NCBI GenBank assembly: GCA_963813025.1
Contig: CAWEXO010000011.1
Span: 384,001 to 448,000, forward strand
From: an uncultured Verrucomicrobiae bacterium
GTDB taxonomy: Bacteria; Verrucomicrobiota; Verrucomicrobiia; Chthoniobacterales; JAFAMB01
Reading direction: 5' to 3'
Length of the DNA stretch: 64,000 nt
The position numbers and the translations under genes are program-made. Below the pieces are notes generated by a model. That model ran no database searches. It was not told the DNA's origin and saw only the letters and a list, made by a program, of their open reading frames with translations. Shown here in pieces: positions 47,474 through 54,533 of this stretch; position 1 is the first letter of the stretch, and each line of letters opens with the position of its first letter.

Positions 47474-48598
47474 TGCCTAATTGCGTAAGTTAGTTATATG
47501 TATGGCGACTTTCCCCTGATGTACCTGGGATTTGGTCCATTCGAAGGGAGCCGCATTGTTATTGTAGTTCTTGATGAAGGTGTCGATGGCGTTGCGCAGC
47601 TCTGCCACGCTGGTGAAGTTTGCCCCCTGGAGGGCTTGGCGGCTCAAGATACTAAACCAGATCTCAATCTGGTTGAGCCAAGAAGCGTGGGTTGGAGTGA
47701 AATGAAAATGCACATTGGGGTGAGCCTTCAACCAGCGATCTTGCTTTGGCTTATGGGTCGCAAGGTTGTCTAAGACCACATGAATTTCTTTGTCGAGATT
47801 TCCGGCAACTACCTGGTTCATAAACTCCAGGAATTCCCGTCGGCGCTGGCGCCGGTAATGACCAGCCTGCACTTGGCCGCTGGCAATGTTGAGGGCGGCA
47901 AAGAGAGTGGAGGTGCCATGGCGCTTGTACTCGTGGCTAAAACCCGTCAGCGCCCTGCCATTGGGCAAGCGAATCCAACCTTGGGCTCTTTCCAGGGCTT
48001 GAATGGCTGGTTTTTCATCAATGGCCAAGATGAGCGCATTCTGGGGCGGATTGAGATAAAGACCGACAATGTCAGCGGCCTTGCGCACAAACTCCGGATC
48101 GGTGGAAATGCACCAGCTGCGGCGCCGTTCCAATTCAATGCCTTGTTGGCGCAAAATGCGCCAGACTTGATCGGAGGAAACATCGGCCAGACTCTGCGCC
48201 AGCAGTCGCCCATTCCAGCGCCCGTAGCCCGCCGGTGGATCTTCATCCAGCAGCGCCAAGACCCGCTTGACCGTCATTTGATCATACTTGGCCGGCTTTC
48301 CACTGCGTGGCGCGTCTTCCAAGCCAGCCAGGCCTTGGCGCACAAAGCGCCGCCGCCATTTACTCACCGTCACCTCGGGAATGCGCAGGCTCTTGGCAAT
48401 CGCACGTCCACTCAAGCCCGCTGCCGCCTTCAAGATAATCTGACTCCTGACCTTGAGCCGGTGTTCGACCCGTTGCGCTCGACTCCAACCCTCCAAGAGC
48501 TTGCGGTTTTCCACAGAAAGTTTGATGCAACCCATTGCCATCCATCCAACAAATCATAATTTTTCATAAATATAAAGAACTAAAGCAACTAAGTACTA
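47471..48598 (-). mobile_element. IS630-family element, copy 2 (transposase 47477-48541)
   Basis: Near-identical to 17192-18319; CTAG at both ends. Confidence 0.95.
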
Positions 48599-50118: not shown

Positions 50119-52095
50119 GTGATCGCCTTTCGCCAAGACTCCGAACCAGAGTTCAGGTGCCAAGTCCAGGCTCTGTTCGGTCCCAAAGGCGCGCTTTCGG
50201 GTCAGGCCCGTTTTGAGTACCGGCCGCAACAACAAAAAATGGCGGTATCGATCGCGCAAACCCTGGAACGCCAAGAGCATCTGGTCATCGAAGCCGGTAC
50301 CGGCGTTGGCAAGTCATTAGCCTATCTGGTTCCTTCCGTACTTCTAGCTCTCGAGGACAACCGCAAAGCGATTATCTCGACCCACACGATCAACCTTCAG
50401 GAACAGCTTTTGCAGAAAGATATTCCCGCAGTGCGAAAGTTGATCAAACAGCCTTTCCAGGCTGCGCTGCTGAAGGGCAGGCAGAATTACCTTTGCCCGA
50501 ATCGTCTCGATCGTGCGCTGCAGCTGCAGGCGGACCTTTTCGACGGATCGCAGCAAAAAGAGTTGCTTCGCCTGAAGGAGTGGAGCCAACGAACCACTGA
50601 AGGCACCTTAAGTGATCTCGATATTGAGCCTGATCCAAACGTTTGGGGCCAGGTTTGCAGCGAACCCCACATCTGCACTCCGAACAGTTGCGGCACCGAT
50701 GACCGTTGCTTTTACCAAAAGGCTCGTAAAAAGCTTTTGACCGCCGATCTCATCGTCCTAAACCACACCCTCCTTCTGCTGGCGATGCAGGCAGCGGCGG
50801 ACAACGAGCATCGGTCAGGTTATTTGTTTCCGCGAGATTTTCTTATCCTGGATGAAGCGCACACGATCGAATCAGTGGCCGCTCGGCAGATCGGTCTGGG
50901 TATCTCACAGTACGGCTTAAGGCAAACTCTCTACCGGCTCTACAACCCGAAGACGCAGAAAGGATTGTTTCAACTTTTGCGCGCGGCGGATTCGGTGCGC
51001 GAAACCACGCAAACCTGTGAATTGCTGGACCAGTTCTTCGCTTCGCTGGATCAGGCGGCCGACTTTCGCAAAGGTCGTGAGTTTCGGGTTCGCCGACCCG
51101 ACCTGGTTCCGGACAACGCCACCGTTGCCCTGGCCCGGGTACAAGCAGCCGTGGTTGCGGCCGTCAAGGGAGTGGACGACGAGAAACTGCGGGCTGAATT
51201 ACAGGACCTGGGCAGGCGCATTCGCGATGCTCGAGCCGGGATCTCTGACTTTTTGCGGCAAGCAGCCGAGAACCACGTCTACTGGATTGAGCGAACCGGC
51301 AAGGTCCGGCAACAGCTCTCTCTTCACGCTGTACCCGTCGATATCGCGCCAGTTCTGAAACACCTTTTCTTTTCAGAAGGGCAAAGCTGTGTGATGACCA
51401 GTGCAACTCTGGCCGTGGCCGCCGGTTCGCTTGATTACTTCCGCAAACGCGTAGGGGCTTCGGAGGTCACCGGGTGCCAGATCGGCAGTCCCTTCGACTT
51501 TGGGAAACAAATGAAGCTGTATGTGGTGAGCAAGATGCCCGAGCCGCGCGAGAGCGACTATGAAGCCGCTTTGCAGCATTGGATTTGGCATTTTCTCGAA
51601 AAAACACAGGGTCGCGCCTTTGTCCTCTTTACCAGCTATAAGACGATGACCAGCCTGACCCAGCGAATGGCGCCGAAACTGGAGAAGAAGTTCACCTTTC
51701 TGGTTCAAGGTCAAGGCGTTCCGCGCAGCCGGATGCTCGCCCGGTTCCGGGAAGCAAAGAACGGCGTCCTCTTCGGGACGGACAGCTTTTGGACCGGGGT
51801 GGATGTGCCTGGTGACGCGCTCTCCAACGTGATGATTACCCGTTTGCCCTTCGCCGTGCCCGATCATCCGCTCATCGAGGCGAAACTGGAATTGATCGCG
51901 GCCGCGGGTGGCGATCCTTTCACTGAGTTCTCGCTTCCCGAAGCGATTCTCAAGATGCGCCAAGGGGTTGGCCGGCTGATTCGGTCCACCAAGGATCGCG
52001 GTATCGTGGTGATTCTGGATAACCGCATTCTGAACAAGCCGTACGGGCGCGCCTTTCTCGAGGCTTTGCCAAAGTGCCCGCTTGAGATTGTCTGA
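50119..52095 (+). CDS. DinG/YoaA-family ATP-dependent helicase
   Basis: EAGTGVGKS, KGRQNYLC and Fe-S cysteines, DEAH, QGVGRLIRS. Confidence 0.92.
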   Translation: MIAFRQDSEPEFRCQVQALFGPKGALSGQARFEYRPQQQKMAVSIAQTLERQEHLVIEAGTGVGKSLAYLVPSVLLALEDNRKAIISTHTINLQEQLLQKDIPAVRKLIKQPFQAALLKGRQNYLCPNRLDRALQLQADLFDGSQQKELLRLKEWSQRTTEGTLSDLDIEPDPNVWGQVCSEPHICTPNSCGTDDRCFYQKARKKLLTADLIVLNHTLLLLAMQAAADNEHRSGYLFPRDFLILDEAHTIESVAARQIGLGISQYGLRQTLYRLYNPKTQKGLFQLLRAADSVRETTQTCELLDQFFASLDQAADFRKGREFRVRRPDLVPDNATVALARVQAAVVAAVKGVDDEKLRAELQDLGRRIRDARAGISDFLRQAAENHVYWIERTGKVRQQLSLHAVPVDIAPVLKHLFFSEGQSCVMTSATLAVAAGSLDYFRKRVGASEVTGCQIGSPFDFGKQMKLYVVSKMPEPRESDYEAALQHWIWHFLEKTQGRAFVLFTSYKTMTSLTQRMAPKLEKKFTFLVQGQGVPRSRMLARFREAKNGVLFGTDSFWTGVDVPGDALSNVMITRLPFAVPDHPLIEAKLELIAAAGGDPFTEFSLPEAILKMRQGVGRLIRSTKDRGIVVILDNRILNKPYGRAFLEALPKCPLEIV

Positions 52096-52379
52096 TAATT
52101 ACCAGGAGCAAAACCTGACGCACGAGGCGGCACGCCTTACGTAACGCGGAACTTGTCGCGCCGTAGTGCCGCGAAGCGGGCACGTAGGGGGACGGCCCTC
52201 GGGAGTGTCGGACCTTGGGTAATGTGTAGCGCGCGCAATCGAGCTTTCGTTCTGAAAGCAGGTTAGTGAGTTGTCCCAACGCGTCTTTGGTCCTCTAGCT
52301 AGTTCCCCAGAACTCTGCGCGTTCTTTTTGCGGCAAGAAACACTGGATTGATTGCCTTGGGCATCTCGACGTAGAAAGT

Positions 52380-52590
52380 AGGCAGCAGTGGGTCGGCAGT
52401 TAAGACCGGTGTGGCATTGGAGCTTTATGCCCGATAGCTAGTTTGGTTCCGAGCGTTTTGGTTGTTGCATTAGCGAAGCTCCAGATCGGGTTGTTTGCCG
52501 ATCTGGAGCTATCCTGTTTAGGAGATTTCTCTCTATCTACCAACTCGGGCCGATGCGCTGCAGTGTGAAAGCAAGAACAACATCTAACCC
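52380..52590 (+). ncRNA. Candidate IS110 bridge RNA
   Basis: Non-coding, strong hairpin agctccagatcgg/ccgatctggagct, short matches to both junctions; inferred from position. Confidence 0.45.
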
Positions 52591-52599
52591 AAGAGAGGT

Positions 52600-53990
52600 A
52601 TGGCAAAGAAAACCACGACCAAGCGAAAGAACAAATCAAAAACTCACCGGAGTGTTCTGGAACGGATCAATCTCAAGGCCGCAGGAATCGATATCGGGGC
52701 GAATTTTCACCTGGTGGCCATTCCCGAAGACCGCGGCTCAGAAACGGTGCGCAAGTTTGGCCCTTTTACGAGCGATCTGCAGCGGATGGCTGACTGGCTG
52801 AGCGAACACCACATTGAGACCGTAGTGATGGAATCAACGGGGGTTTATTGGATACCGGTGTTCCAGATTCTGGAGCAGAGAGGGTTGGAGGTAAAATTGG
52901 TCAACGCAGCTCATGTCAAGAATCTGCCTGGACGCAAAAGCGACGTCTCGGACTGCCAATGGCTTCAACAACTCCACACCTTTGGTCTTTTAAACGGCTC
53001 GTTCCGACCCAAGGACGAGGTCTGCGTCTTGCGCAGCTTCCTGCGCCTGCGCGACACCTTGGTTAAGGACTGCAGCAGCCATGTGTTACGCATGCAGAAG
53101 GCCTTAACCGAAATGAATATCCAAGTGCACCGCGTGTTGAGCGACATCACCGGTTATAGTGGCATGGCGATGATTCGGGCGATTTTGGCCGGAGAACGCA
53201 ATCCGCTCAAGCTTGCCCAGATGAAACACCCCCAAGTGAAAGCATCCACTGATCAGATCGTCAAAGCCTTACAGGGAGATTACCGAGCCGAGCATCTCTT
53301 CGCCTTGCAAACGGCCCTGGAACTCTATGACACCTACCAGCTCAAGATCACCGCCTGCGAAAGCAAGATTGAGCAACAACTTGAGCAATTCGACACTAAA
53401 CTAGATTTGGAGCAAGCCCTCGAGCAAAGCGGGGCGGCCCAAGCACGGTCGGCCCAAGTTCGCCTAGCCCTGCAGCGCCGAGCGCATCTGGCCAGCGTTT
53501 GTGGTGTCGATCTGAGTCAGTTGCCTGGCTTGAGCACCTTGGCGGTGGAAGTCATCATTTCGGAAACGGGTTTAGACATGACCTGTTGGAAAAGCGAAAA
53601 ACACTTTTGCTCCTGGCTTAAACTCTGTCCGGACAATCGCATCAGCGGCGGCAAACTGCTCAGTTCCAGCCCCAGAAAAACCAAGAATCGCGCGGCGGCC
53701 ATGTTCCGGCTGGCGGCCCAAGGAGCCATGCAAAGTAAGACGGCCATCGGCGCTTTTATCCGCCGCATCAAAGCCCGATTGGGGGCACCCACCGCCATCA
53801 ACGCCGGAGCTCATAAACTGGCACGCTTGTTCTATCGCATGCTCAAGTTCGGAGCTGCCTATGTCGAGCAAGGCAACTCTACTACGAGAAAAAATACAAA
53901 GACCGCCTACTTCACAATCTCAGCCGACGAGCCAAAGAATTCGGACTCCAACTCACGCCTCTAGACCCAGCCACGGATTTAGTTTCTTAG
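52600..53990 (+). CDS. IS110-family recombinase (DEDD), frameshift near 53875
   Basis: AAGIDIG, VMESTGVYW, RKSDVSDCQW, LCPDNRISGG; native C-terminus appears to continue in another frame to TAG at 53988-53990. Confidence 0.92.
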
Positions 53991-53994
53991 GAGC

Positions 53995-54116
53995 GGTAGG
54001 GCGATCCACCTTCGCGGACGAGCGCCAAGCGAGAACTTGTTTGACGTGTCCGCCATAGCCTTGGCGAAGGCGGAGCCGTCTGGAGTGGGTGGCTCATCCC
54101 AATGTCAGGCTTGAAT
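53995..54116 (+). repeat. ~120-bp dispersed GTAG-starting repeat (inverted copy at 29700-29819)
   Basis: ggtagggcgatc...gagaacttgtttgacgtgtccgccatagccttggcgaaggcgg. Confidence 0.85.
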
Positions 54117-54458
54117 AAGGAGATTGTCTCACAACACCCAAGCTCGGTAGAGCAAGCTCCTGCTTGACCTCCTTAGTGCCGGATCACGTCTCGATCCGGA
54201 CAAGTAGGCCGCCTGCGCAAGGCTACTACGGCGCGCCCTCCGCTCAATCGTTTGTGTCATTCCATATCCGGGCAGCGACGAAGGCTTGTCCCTCGTCGGT
54301 GAATTCATCCCTACCGCCAATCGCTTGATGGCGTACTACAGATTACCCAAAGCCCGATAAACCCGGCCTTGTCCGTATTCTGCGGCGATAATGGTTTGCC
54401 CATCCATCGCTGAAGTTGACACTAGTACGCGCCAAACCGATGATACGGCTTTTCGTTT

Positions 54459-54533
54459 GGCGGGGTAGCCAAGTGGTAAGGCCGAGGTCTGCAAAACCTC
54501 TATTCGCGGGTTCGATTCCCGCCCCCGCCTCCA
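54459..54533 (+). tRNA. tRNA-Cys(GCA)
   Basis: GGCGGGG/CCCCGCC acceptor, GAGGT-CTGCAAA-ACCTC, GGTTCGA, CCA; TTGACA at 54416-54421 upstream. Confidence 0.95.

Follow-up and report, generated by a model that had tools for sequence, protein, structure and literature searches.

An IS110-family element of an uncultured Verrucomicrobiae bacterium, its bridge RNA, and a donor guide that may read a folded DNA strand

Introduction

Elements of the IS110 family are mobilized by recombinases that combine a DEDD RuvC-like domain with a C-terminal domain carrying a catalytic serine; they insert at a short shared core without target duplication, and their head-to-tail junctions lie at that core. In the IS621 and ISCro4 systems, as far as the accessible text goes (PMC11208160, PMC11208158, PMC13626964), a bridge RNA encoded upstream of the gene has two loops with CCG...UGG motifs, in each loop the second guide finishes with AG and two handshake bases, and a CT core lies on the guide-bound strand. 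The text on IS621 gives its second target guide track as five bases, two core bases, and two handshake bases (PMC11208160). The IS1111-group seekRNA elements (ISEc11, ISKpn4, and ISPa11), in the accessible part of their description, have the RNA downstream, subterminal inverted repeats of 7 to 17 bp, and proteins of 330 to 350 aa (PMC11187229).

The closest studied relative of the element described here is ISPpu9, which, like MITEPpu9, belongs to Pseudomonas putida KT2440 (PMC12288879, PMC8450116) and forms one cluster with ISPsy35 and ISWpi13 in Table S1 of Durrant 2024. A palindrome mutant of ISPpu9 still gave circle-junction PCR products, in a nonquantitative assay concerned with circle formation only, and the authors proposed in the text that the palindrome may act in integration (PMC12288879). 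The stem-loop of ISPpu10, by the available text, lies in the target and not in the donor. Single-strand excision is reported in the accessible text on IS621 and CazIS110-1, and the literature covered here currently disputes whether the inserting IS110 circles are single or double stranded.

Here we analyze an IS110-family element in a 64,000-nucleotide stretch (the window) from an uncultured Verrucomicrobiae bacterium. A preliminary description of this DNA proposed that two short string matches in the noncoding region upstream of the recombinase mark guide segments of a bridge RNA. The matches alone have probabilities of 0.016 (9 nt; 1,500 base shuffles, either strand) and 0.42 (7 nt; chance level), so that other copies and homologues were required to settle the question.

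Results

The open reading frame at 52600..53964 (+ strand), correctly assigned earlier to the IS110 family and placed downstream of the noncoding region, encodes a DEDD/serine recombinase with both family domains (Pfam PF01548 and PF02371) and scores 247 bits against NCBIfam NF033542 (cutoff, 140). Its catalytic residues are D31, E78, D115, D118, and S349, and it contains the motif PDNRISG. The predicted fold of an intact copy resembles IS621 (Foldseek E value, 1.6e-10), with which it shares the DEDD and serine recombinase architecture; the two proteins differ in length (463 versus 326 aa) and are 16 to 18% identical. The window copy is one base short at 53871, and the resulting frameshift yields 454 aa with an aberrant tail instead of 463 aa and removes the conserved last helix (residues 426 to 447 in the model of the intact copy). 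This loss is unique to the window copy among ten full-length near-identical copies compared; since the base is present at a depth of 4.5 of 7 in contigs of one run, the loss may be an assembly error.

The genome contains 13 copies, 12 at 98.8 to 100% identity (two of them broken up by other DNA) and one at 87.7%. All 13 right ends read TTTCTTAGGAG and diverge beyond it, left junctions mostly read (C)TAGCTAG followed by TTCCCC, and three natural head-to-tail junctions read TTAGG-AG-TT(C/G)CC. These tandem junctions and the ends shared by copies and mini-elements set the core as AG and the element as 52303..53991 (+), 1,689 bp between two AG cores; aligning genomic copies, as had been suggested, helped to fix both. 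TAGTT, offered earlier as the string common to both junctions, does occur at 52300, 52439, and 53980, but as a core it gives way to the AG of the tandem junctions. On the left, the host-side target arm TAGCT and core AG (52296..52302, +) are followed by the element's first 6 nt, TTCCCC (52303..52308, +), of which the first two are handshake bases. The right end (53982..53993, +) consists of the subterminal arm GTTTCT, the donor arm TTAGG, and the core AG, is invariant in the 13 copies and five mini-elements, and, where the gene is intact, overlaps its stop codon (53988-90). The genome has 40 IS110-domain matches in all, with at least three other families among them, and an RNA of the type described below accompanies only these 13 copies.

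The right host flank (53994..54100, +) belongs to a family of intergenic repeats that the element interrupts here; 28 unoccupied members of this family span the insertion site. Compared with unoccupied repeat copies, the window (52295-52302) and three other repeat-family sites have an extra CTAG at the left junction, 4 bp that form an exception to the family's insertion without duplication. The filled site reads CTAGCTAG at all four testable sites; at the corresponding place, 208 of 256 family members have a stretch of 4 nt and 1 has a stretch of 8 nt. A C precedes 7 of 10 occupied TAGCTAG sites versus 10 of 82 free ones (P = 0.0002) and is not encoded in the guide; slippage to an outer AG in circle formation would take CTAG along. 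For two more sites there were no family members under the anchors used, and their paralogues have the full target. We rejected the general rule that CTAG is always element borne, as tandem junctions lack it and unoccupied paralogues have the full 7- to 8-mer. Some right junctions have an extra GAG (contig C13, position 39753, of this genome; loci L054 to L056), and target 7-mers stand in tandem left of the copies in L064 and L068. Palindromic intergenic repeat families are abundant on both sides of the element (52100-52295 and 53994-54200), which lies between a DinG-like helicase gene (50119-52095) and a tRNA-Cys gene (54459-54533). A DDE_3 (IS630-type) transposase gene (47477-48541, −) is inserted directly after a two-component system pair. 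Neither a circle nor a tandem joint appeared in the contigs of one DNA run, a negative that does not speak against their existence.

For comparison, 157 loci at 49 to 90% identity were collected, with the best matches in Verrucomicrobiae records. The RNA region was complete in 151 of 158 sequences (window included); 117 were distinct, and clustering left 72 representatives at <90% identity. For 65 of these, a motif behind the gene located the right end, and for 64, AGAAAC set a left search window. Because homologues share kinship, the shuffle tests below overstate significance. Mutual information revealed an RNA (52386..52560, +) with an outer stem (52389-97/52549-57), a three-way junction from which the target loop extends, and a stem (52450-53/52544-47) that carries the donor loop; IS621 and ISCro4, in the published text, have separate hairpins rather than one outer stem and a three-way junction. 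The 13-bp perfect hairpin noted previously (52477..52510, +; arms 52477-52489/52498-52510) exists, but a connection with the guides does not hold up: it forms the inner stem of the donor loop, is highly variable in length among homologues, and contains no guide. Two-sided changes occur in 26 of 31 RNA pairs, and 87% of cells pair (48 sequences); the covariation score is 0.443, versus 0.185 when shuffled and 0.08 to 0.16 when slid, for a structure derived from overlapping data. A model built from homologues, a check proposed at the outset, recovered the RNA in five of eight distant plasmid loci, in one of them weakly, and Rfam had no family match over the RNA region. Single-sequence folding, which placed guides in stems (z = −2.2), was replaced by the comparative structure. 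The identification as a bridge RNA we regard as practically certain: it is structured, noncoding, and located upstream of the gene, its target and donor loops carry CCG...UGG motifs as in IS621 and ISCro4, and its guides covary with DNA.

The bridge RNA would be made from the 5′ noncoding end, where an internal promoter would probably produce it as the 5′ leader of the mRNA for the recombinase. We infer this from a TAnnnT motif located 21 to 25 nt upstream of 52398 in 30 of 72 representatives (2.0 in other windows) and from the mapped start of ISPpu9 about 85 nt inside that element, which matches 52386. The weak candidate in the window, TTGATT...TAGAAA (52348..52377, +), has a −10-like TAGAAA without the final T, and a promoter scan of the left end found nothing. 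IS621 and ISCro4 may differ in this respect: the IS621-type promoter lies across the circle junction, and the motif enriched here is the internal −10-like one.

Both strings of the preliminary description are present, TAGCTAGTT at 52296-52304 and 52435-52443 and TTAGGAG at 52518-52524 and 53987-53993. The warning that such short matches could be chance applies to the second taken alone; covariation in homologues makes both decisive and bears out their interpretation as bridge RNA guides. Guide b, TAGCT-AG with handshake TT (52435..52443, +), occupies the register of the IS621 right target guide (RRRRR CC HH), and TAGCT-AG-TT has exactly the layout published for IS621's second target guide. Its first seven bases (52435-41) match the own left flank at 6 to 7 of 7 nt in 52 of the 64 left-window representatives (5.1 with shuffled guides) and at 7 of 7 in 35 (shuffled, 1.4). 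Since the left junction was placed by the best match of guide b, this test was controlled by shuffling guides; in multicopy genomes, boundaries are independent of guide b. At 15 independent sites of this genome, guide b matches its left target at 7/7 (10 sites), 6/7 (3 sites), or 3-4/7 (2 sites). In 45 of 52 representatives, versus 9.9 in shuffles, the handshake bases 52442-43 repeat the two bases with which the element begins; they equal the right-target bases in only 3 of 55 (shuffled, 2.5). As in IS621, the bases after the core-pairing guide match the noncognate substrate, here on the target loop; a donor-loop handshake had no significant match to the target. Guide d, TTAGG-AG (52518..52524, +; position of the IS621 right donor guide), equals the own right end in 59 of 65 representatives (shuffled, 16.7) and in 33 of 38 with nonmodal ends.

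Guide map and wiring extend beyond these two segments, the part of the map that had been recognized, to guides at 52410-14 and 52462-67, the handshake TT at 52442-43, an inverted wiring, and a left-end hairpin, all of which had been missed. All four guides covary with DNA across the 72 representatives, the comparison that had been called for. Guide a, TGTGG-CA (52410..52416, +; position of the IS621 left target guide), is complementary to the right target's top strand at 133 of 235 bases +1 to +5 (64 ± 7 shuffled) and shows no enrichment at this genome's own 15 sites (P = 0.48). Among nearest-neighbor pairs, changed positions track in 10 of 13 cases for the handshake, 11 of 14 for guide d, and 14 of 69 for guide a, and none change in the opposite direction. 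AACT at 52542-45 was rejected as a right-donor guide, as it pairs within the RNA. To judge from the sequence, the CT core of IS621 sits on the bottom strand here, the AG core being its complement, so that RNA and gene form a cassette inverted relative to the recombination sites; IS621 and ISCro4, as published, differ in this orientation and from the first guides of 5 to 6 nt found here. Instead of the IS621 order, with the bottom-strand (left) guide before the top-strand (right) guide, the order is reversed; the published IS1111-group elements likewise have the top-strand target match 5′ of the bottom-strand match. In loci L151 and L152, the core is AC in both guides and both junctions. Guide b is TTAGGAG, the clade's commonest right-end sequence, in five loci (L004, L015, L024, L100, and L142), which suggests that these elements may be aimed at the ends of relatives. 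The cyanobacterial members (L044 to L052, L031, and L032) have a longer left flank in common (GGTGCAAGAT...); their target was probably the end of another element.

Guide c, TTGTTG-CA (52462..52469, +), occupies the position of the IS621 left donor guide. In place of the IS621 arrangement, in which donor guides address opposite strands flanking the core, we found no complementarity of guide c to core-adjacent bases (56 of 240 versus 57) and a same-strand match to a distal site: 52462-67 copies the left end 23 to 28 nt inside, past a conserved DNA hairpin. This site (52325..52330, −) would be read on the bottom strand and covaries in the same sense with 52462-67. Identity amounts to 185 of 260 positions, versus 96 ± 6.7 in shuffles. 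When an unbiased scan took AGAAAC as its anchor, the four strongest signals were identities of 52463-66 with left-end positions −10 to −7, which overturned our reading of guide c as degenerate. Per-position identity is 24 to 47 of 51 to 52, the signal is stable at 80% and 72% clustering (at 72%, 88 of 120 versus 45), slid registers give 76 to 100 versus 190 of 265 at the true register, and guide c is unique among RNA 5-mers, the best other one reaching a quarter of the excess. Between relatives (44 disjoint pairs), 12 of 38 changed positions track and 1 opposes. The CA after guide c has no match to DNA (15 and 10 of 52). Agreement of the distal site with guide c is 4/5 in the window copy and, by eye, 5/5 in the mini-elements and the 88% copy. 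In eight elements outside the discovery set (about five independent), agreement is 16 of 40 at the exact register, and two of the eight reach 5/5 after a post hoc shift of 1 nt.

The hairpin between core and distal site (52309..52325, −; arms AGAAC/GTTCT) starts at +7 and ends 10 nt before the left subterminal arm AGAAAC (52336..52341, +). Its sequence and length vary, and its register is fixed at +7/−11, where 81% of pairs are Watson-Crick versus 25 to 36% off register (52 representatives). Among non-Watson-Crick pairs in the top sense, A.C outnumbers G.T by 17 to 2 (33 representatives), which places the wobbles in the bottom strand. Guides c and d use this strand, as do the handshake bases and the CT core. 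Because guide c copies the distal left end, both donor guides pair with this same strand, by way of the hairpin, which sets the element apart from IS621 and ISCro4 as published. The 6-bp subterminal arms of the two ends covary in eight of nine noncanonical cases (four motif types), as does the pair next to them (41 of 43 versus 29 expected). Stem mismatches and covarying arms favor a bottom strand that would fold back as a pseudo-duplex donor. The natural tandem junction adopts the modeled shape on the bottom and not on the top strand, no better than shuffles (z = −1.05). The fold is thus weak in this lineage; the window left-end fold has a z of −0.16, and the minimum-energy fold of the window junction differs from the modeled one. 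By whole-junction energy, no more than 29 of 52 representatives favor the bottom strand. The layout recurs at 47 to 48% protein identity with an AA core in L217, L219, and L224 (by eye; distal site offset by 0 to 2 nt). These and L218, at the same identity and with the same core, are enterobacterial or alphaproteobacterial plasmid members inserted after a six-A run in what appear to be other IS genes; these runs may be frameshift motifs.

Five noncoding mini-elements of 122 bp share both ends with the full element. They lie at C14:104508-104751, C14:36986-37220, and C13:343107-343228 of this genome, with the element's ends and target, as two tandem pairs, one immediately behind a full copy, and a single copy, and they have neither RNA nor gene. 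Their similarity to the left end covers the first 40 nt only and stops at AGAAAC; exactly the hairpin, distal site, and arm are retained. In relatives, mini-elements are as short as about 56 bp; others of ~56 to 60 and ~130 to 140 bp occur in L196, L198, and L201 (one genome, G024) and L187 to L189 (another, G002), some with compensated subterminal arms. Mini-elements, which keep only 40 nt from the left end and ~13 nt from the right, would move in trans.

Discussion

The anatomy of the ends is already known from ISPpu9; for the guide map and the fold-back reading, no precedent turned up in the literature text searched. Compared by eye with published tables, the element shows the traits of the ISPpu9 clade: an AG core, an A-box palindrome, a short B box, a candidate internal promoter, and mini-elements. 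The published ISPpu9 has AG at both ends and AG-core circles (PMC12288879); its left "A box" consists of AG, 6 nt, a palindrome, a linker, and a short arm complementary to the right "B box," likewise found here, and its transcription starts at an internal promoter, ~85 nt into the element, with no junction promoter. It also has tandem mini-elements and inserts into repeats, a primer reads CCCG-N followed by the left-target 7-mer as in our element (PMC8450116), and the protein representing its cluster is, by eye, closely similar to our recombinase. Two differences are apparent in the text: the ISPpu9 linker is ~2 nt longer, and its mini-element bears a small RNA, whereas ours bear none. Primers published for this RNA, Ssr9, show target-loop-like motifs (PMC8450116), hinting that the mini-borne Ssr9 may be a bridge RNA derivative. 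The published text on ISPpu9 (PMC12288879, PMC8450116) contained neither a guide map nor an explanation of the palindrome. For a fold-back donor read by a bridge RNA, no literature text was found; figures, bioRxiv supplements (for example, Fig. S12 of 10.64898/2026.10.21.760802, 86 RNA models), and subscription papers were outside this scope and could contain it. Subterminal inverted repeats are shared with the IS1111 group as published; here, the arms are 6 to 7 bp and enclose a hairpin, the RNA lies upstream, and the protein has 463 aa.

The best explanation of our combined results is probably an active IS110 element of the ISPpu9 clade whose bridge RNA reads a fold-back donor in single-strand copy-out and insertion. 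At both junctions, the recombinase would cleave the bottom strand behind CT and join it into a single-stranded circle. In the circle strand, the subterminal arms would pair and the hairpin form, and the distal left-end arm would take the place of the absent complement. The resulting pseudo-duplex would have an open loop (about 12 by 10 nt), with guides c and d bound to its two sides. The handshake bases would drive one strand transfer that inserts the circle at TAGCT-AG, and replication would finish the copy; only one transfer is expected, since in a second exchange the stand-in strand would be cut within the element. That a folded bottom strand, in one form or another, lets guide c read the distal left-end site appears likely; that its folded substrate is a single-stranded circle seems reasonably probable. 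The covariation fits such a circle and a cruciform alike.

The same guide contacts might be made on double-stranded DNA, with the imperfect palindrome extruding a cruciform arm, either within a supercoiled circle or, while excision proceeds, at the left junction of the integrated element; guide c would read the arm, and the circle would be double stranded, as in the IS621 model. We consider this unlikely, although all covariation results would fit equally, binding of one arm would suffice and would also yield the strand bias, and CazIS110-1 is reported, in the text available, to favor a double-stranded donor ~20-fold at one junction. Being short and weak (mean of −5 kcal/mol for the inner hairpin), the stems would extrude poorly against a perfect duplex, and the covarying subterminal arms of the two ends become relevant only after joining on one strand. 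Less probable still is that guide c is no DNA guide, its identity with the left end arising from duplication or gene conversion or from RNA-level regulation (antisense or read-through transcripts), with guide d and the protein alone recognizing the donor (a half-match) and the hairpin accessory. Published text is compatible with this to a degree: ISPpu9 with a mutated hairpin still circularizes (PMC12288879), abundant ISPpu9 antisense RNA runs across the corresponding region, and half-donor recognition is enough for IS621 excision; in our data, the guide c match is weaker in held-out elements. However, the identity is limited to six positions, at the loop site of IS621's first donor guide and flanked by the motifs of guide a, and ends at the stem (−12 and −13 are at chance); guide c changes track between relatives, the left-end site lies upstream of the inferred RNA start, and mini-elements without the RNA retain the site. 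The geometry first described, with TAGTT as core and a donor junction TAGCTAGTTT read by 52435-52444, is virtually untenable: its 10-nt string match at 52435 exists but is an artefact of joining at TAGTT, as the right end runs 9 nt past TAGTT (53980-53984) and is invariant to 53993 in 13 copies and five mini-elements, natural tandem junctions read TTAGG-AG-TTCCCC and join at AG, and homologues have no common TAGTT, their core shifting to AC or AA along with the guides.

A single strand that folds into a recombination substrate is familiar from integron attC sites and the ends of IS200/IS605 elements, where one strand is exchanged and replication resolves the product; these are read by unrelated tyrosine or HUH enzymes without a guide RNA. 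We lean toward a wider view, in which a widespread IS110 clade including ISPpu9 would use a fold-back donor, the single-stranded excision circle would itself be the integration substrate, and ~55 nt in cis would mobilize single-stranded cargo. The clade would then hold a sequence record bearing on the disputed state of the circle, a guide that reaches its site only if one strand folds back, and the left-end palindrome of ISPpu9 would be explained. Pipelines that, as described in the accessible text, test covariation only ~25 nt around the core would score guide c as absent. If true, this would be a bridge recombinase that suits single-stranded donors and whose minimal ends are given by natural mini-elements of 56 to 122 bp, and, by analogy, an RNA-programmable counterpart of integron attC recombination, in which a single-stranded copy could insert directly, one of its ends recognized as a self-folded DNA strand.
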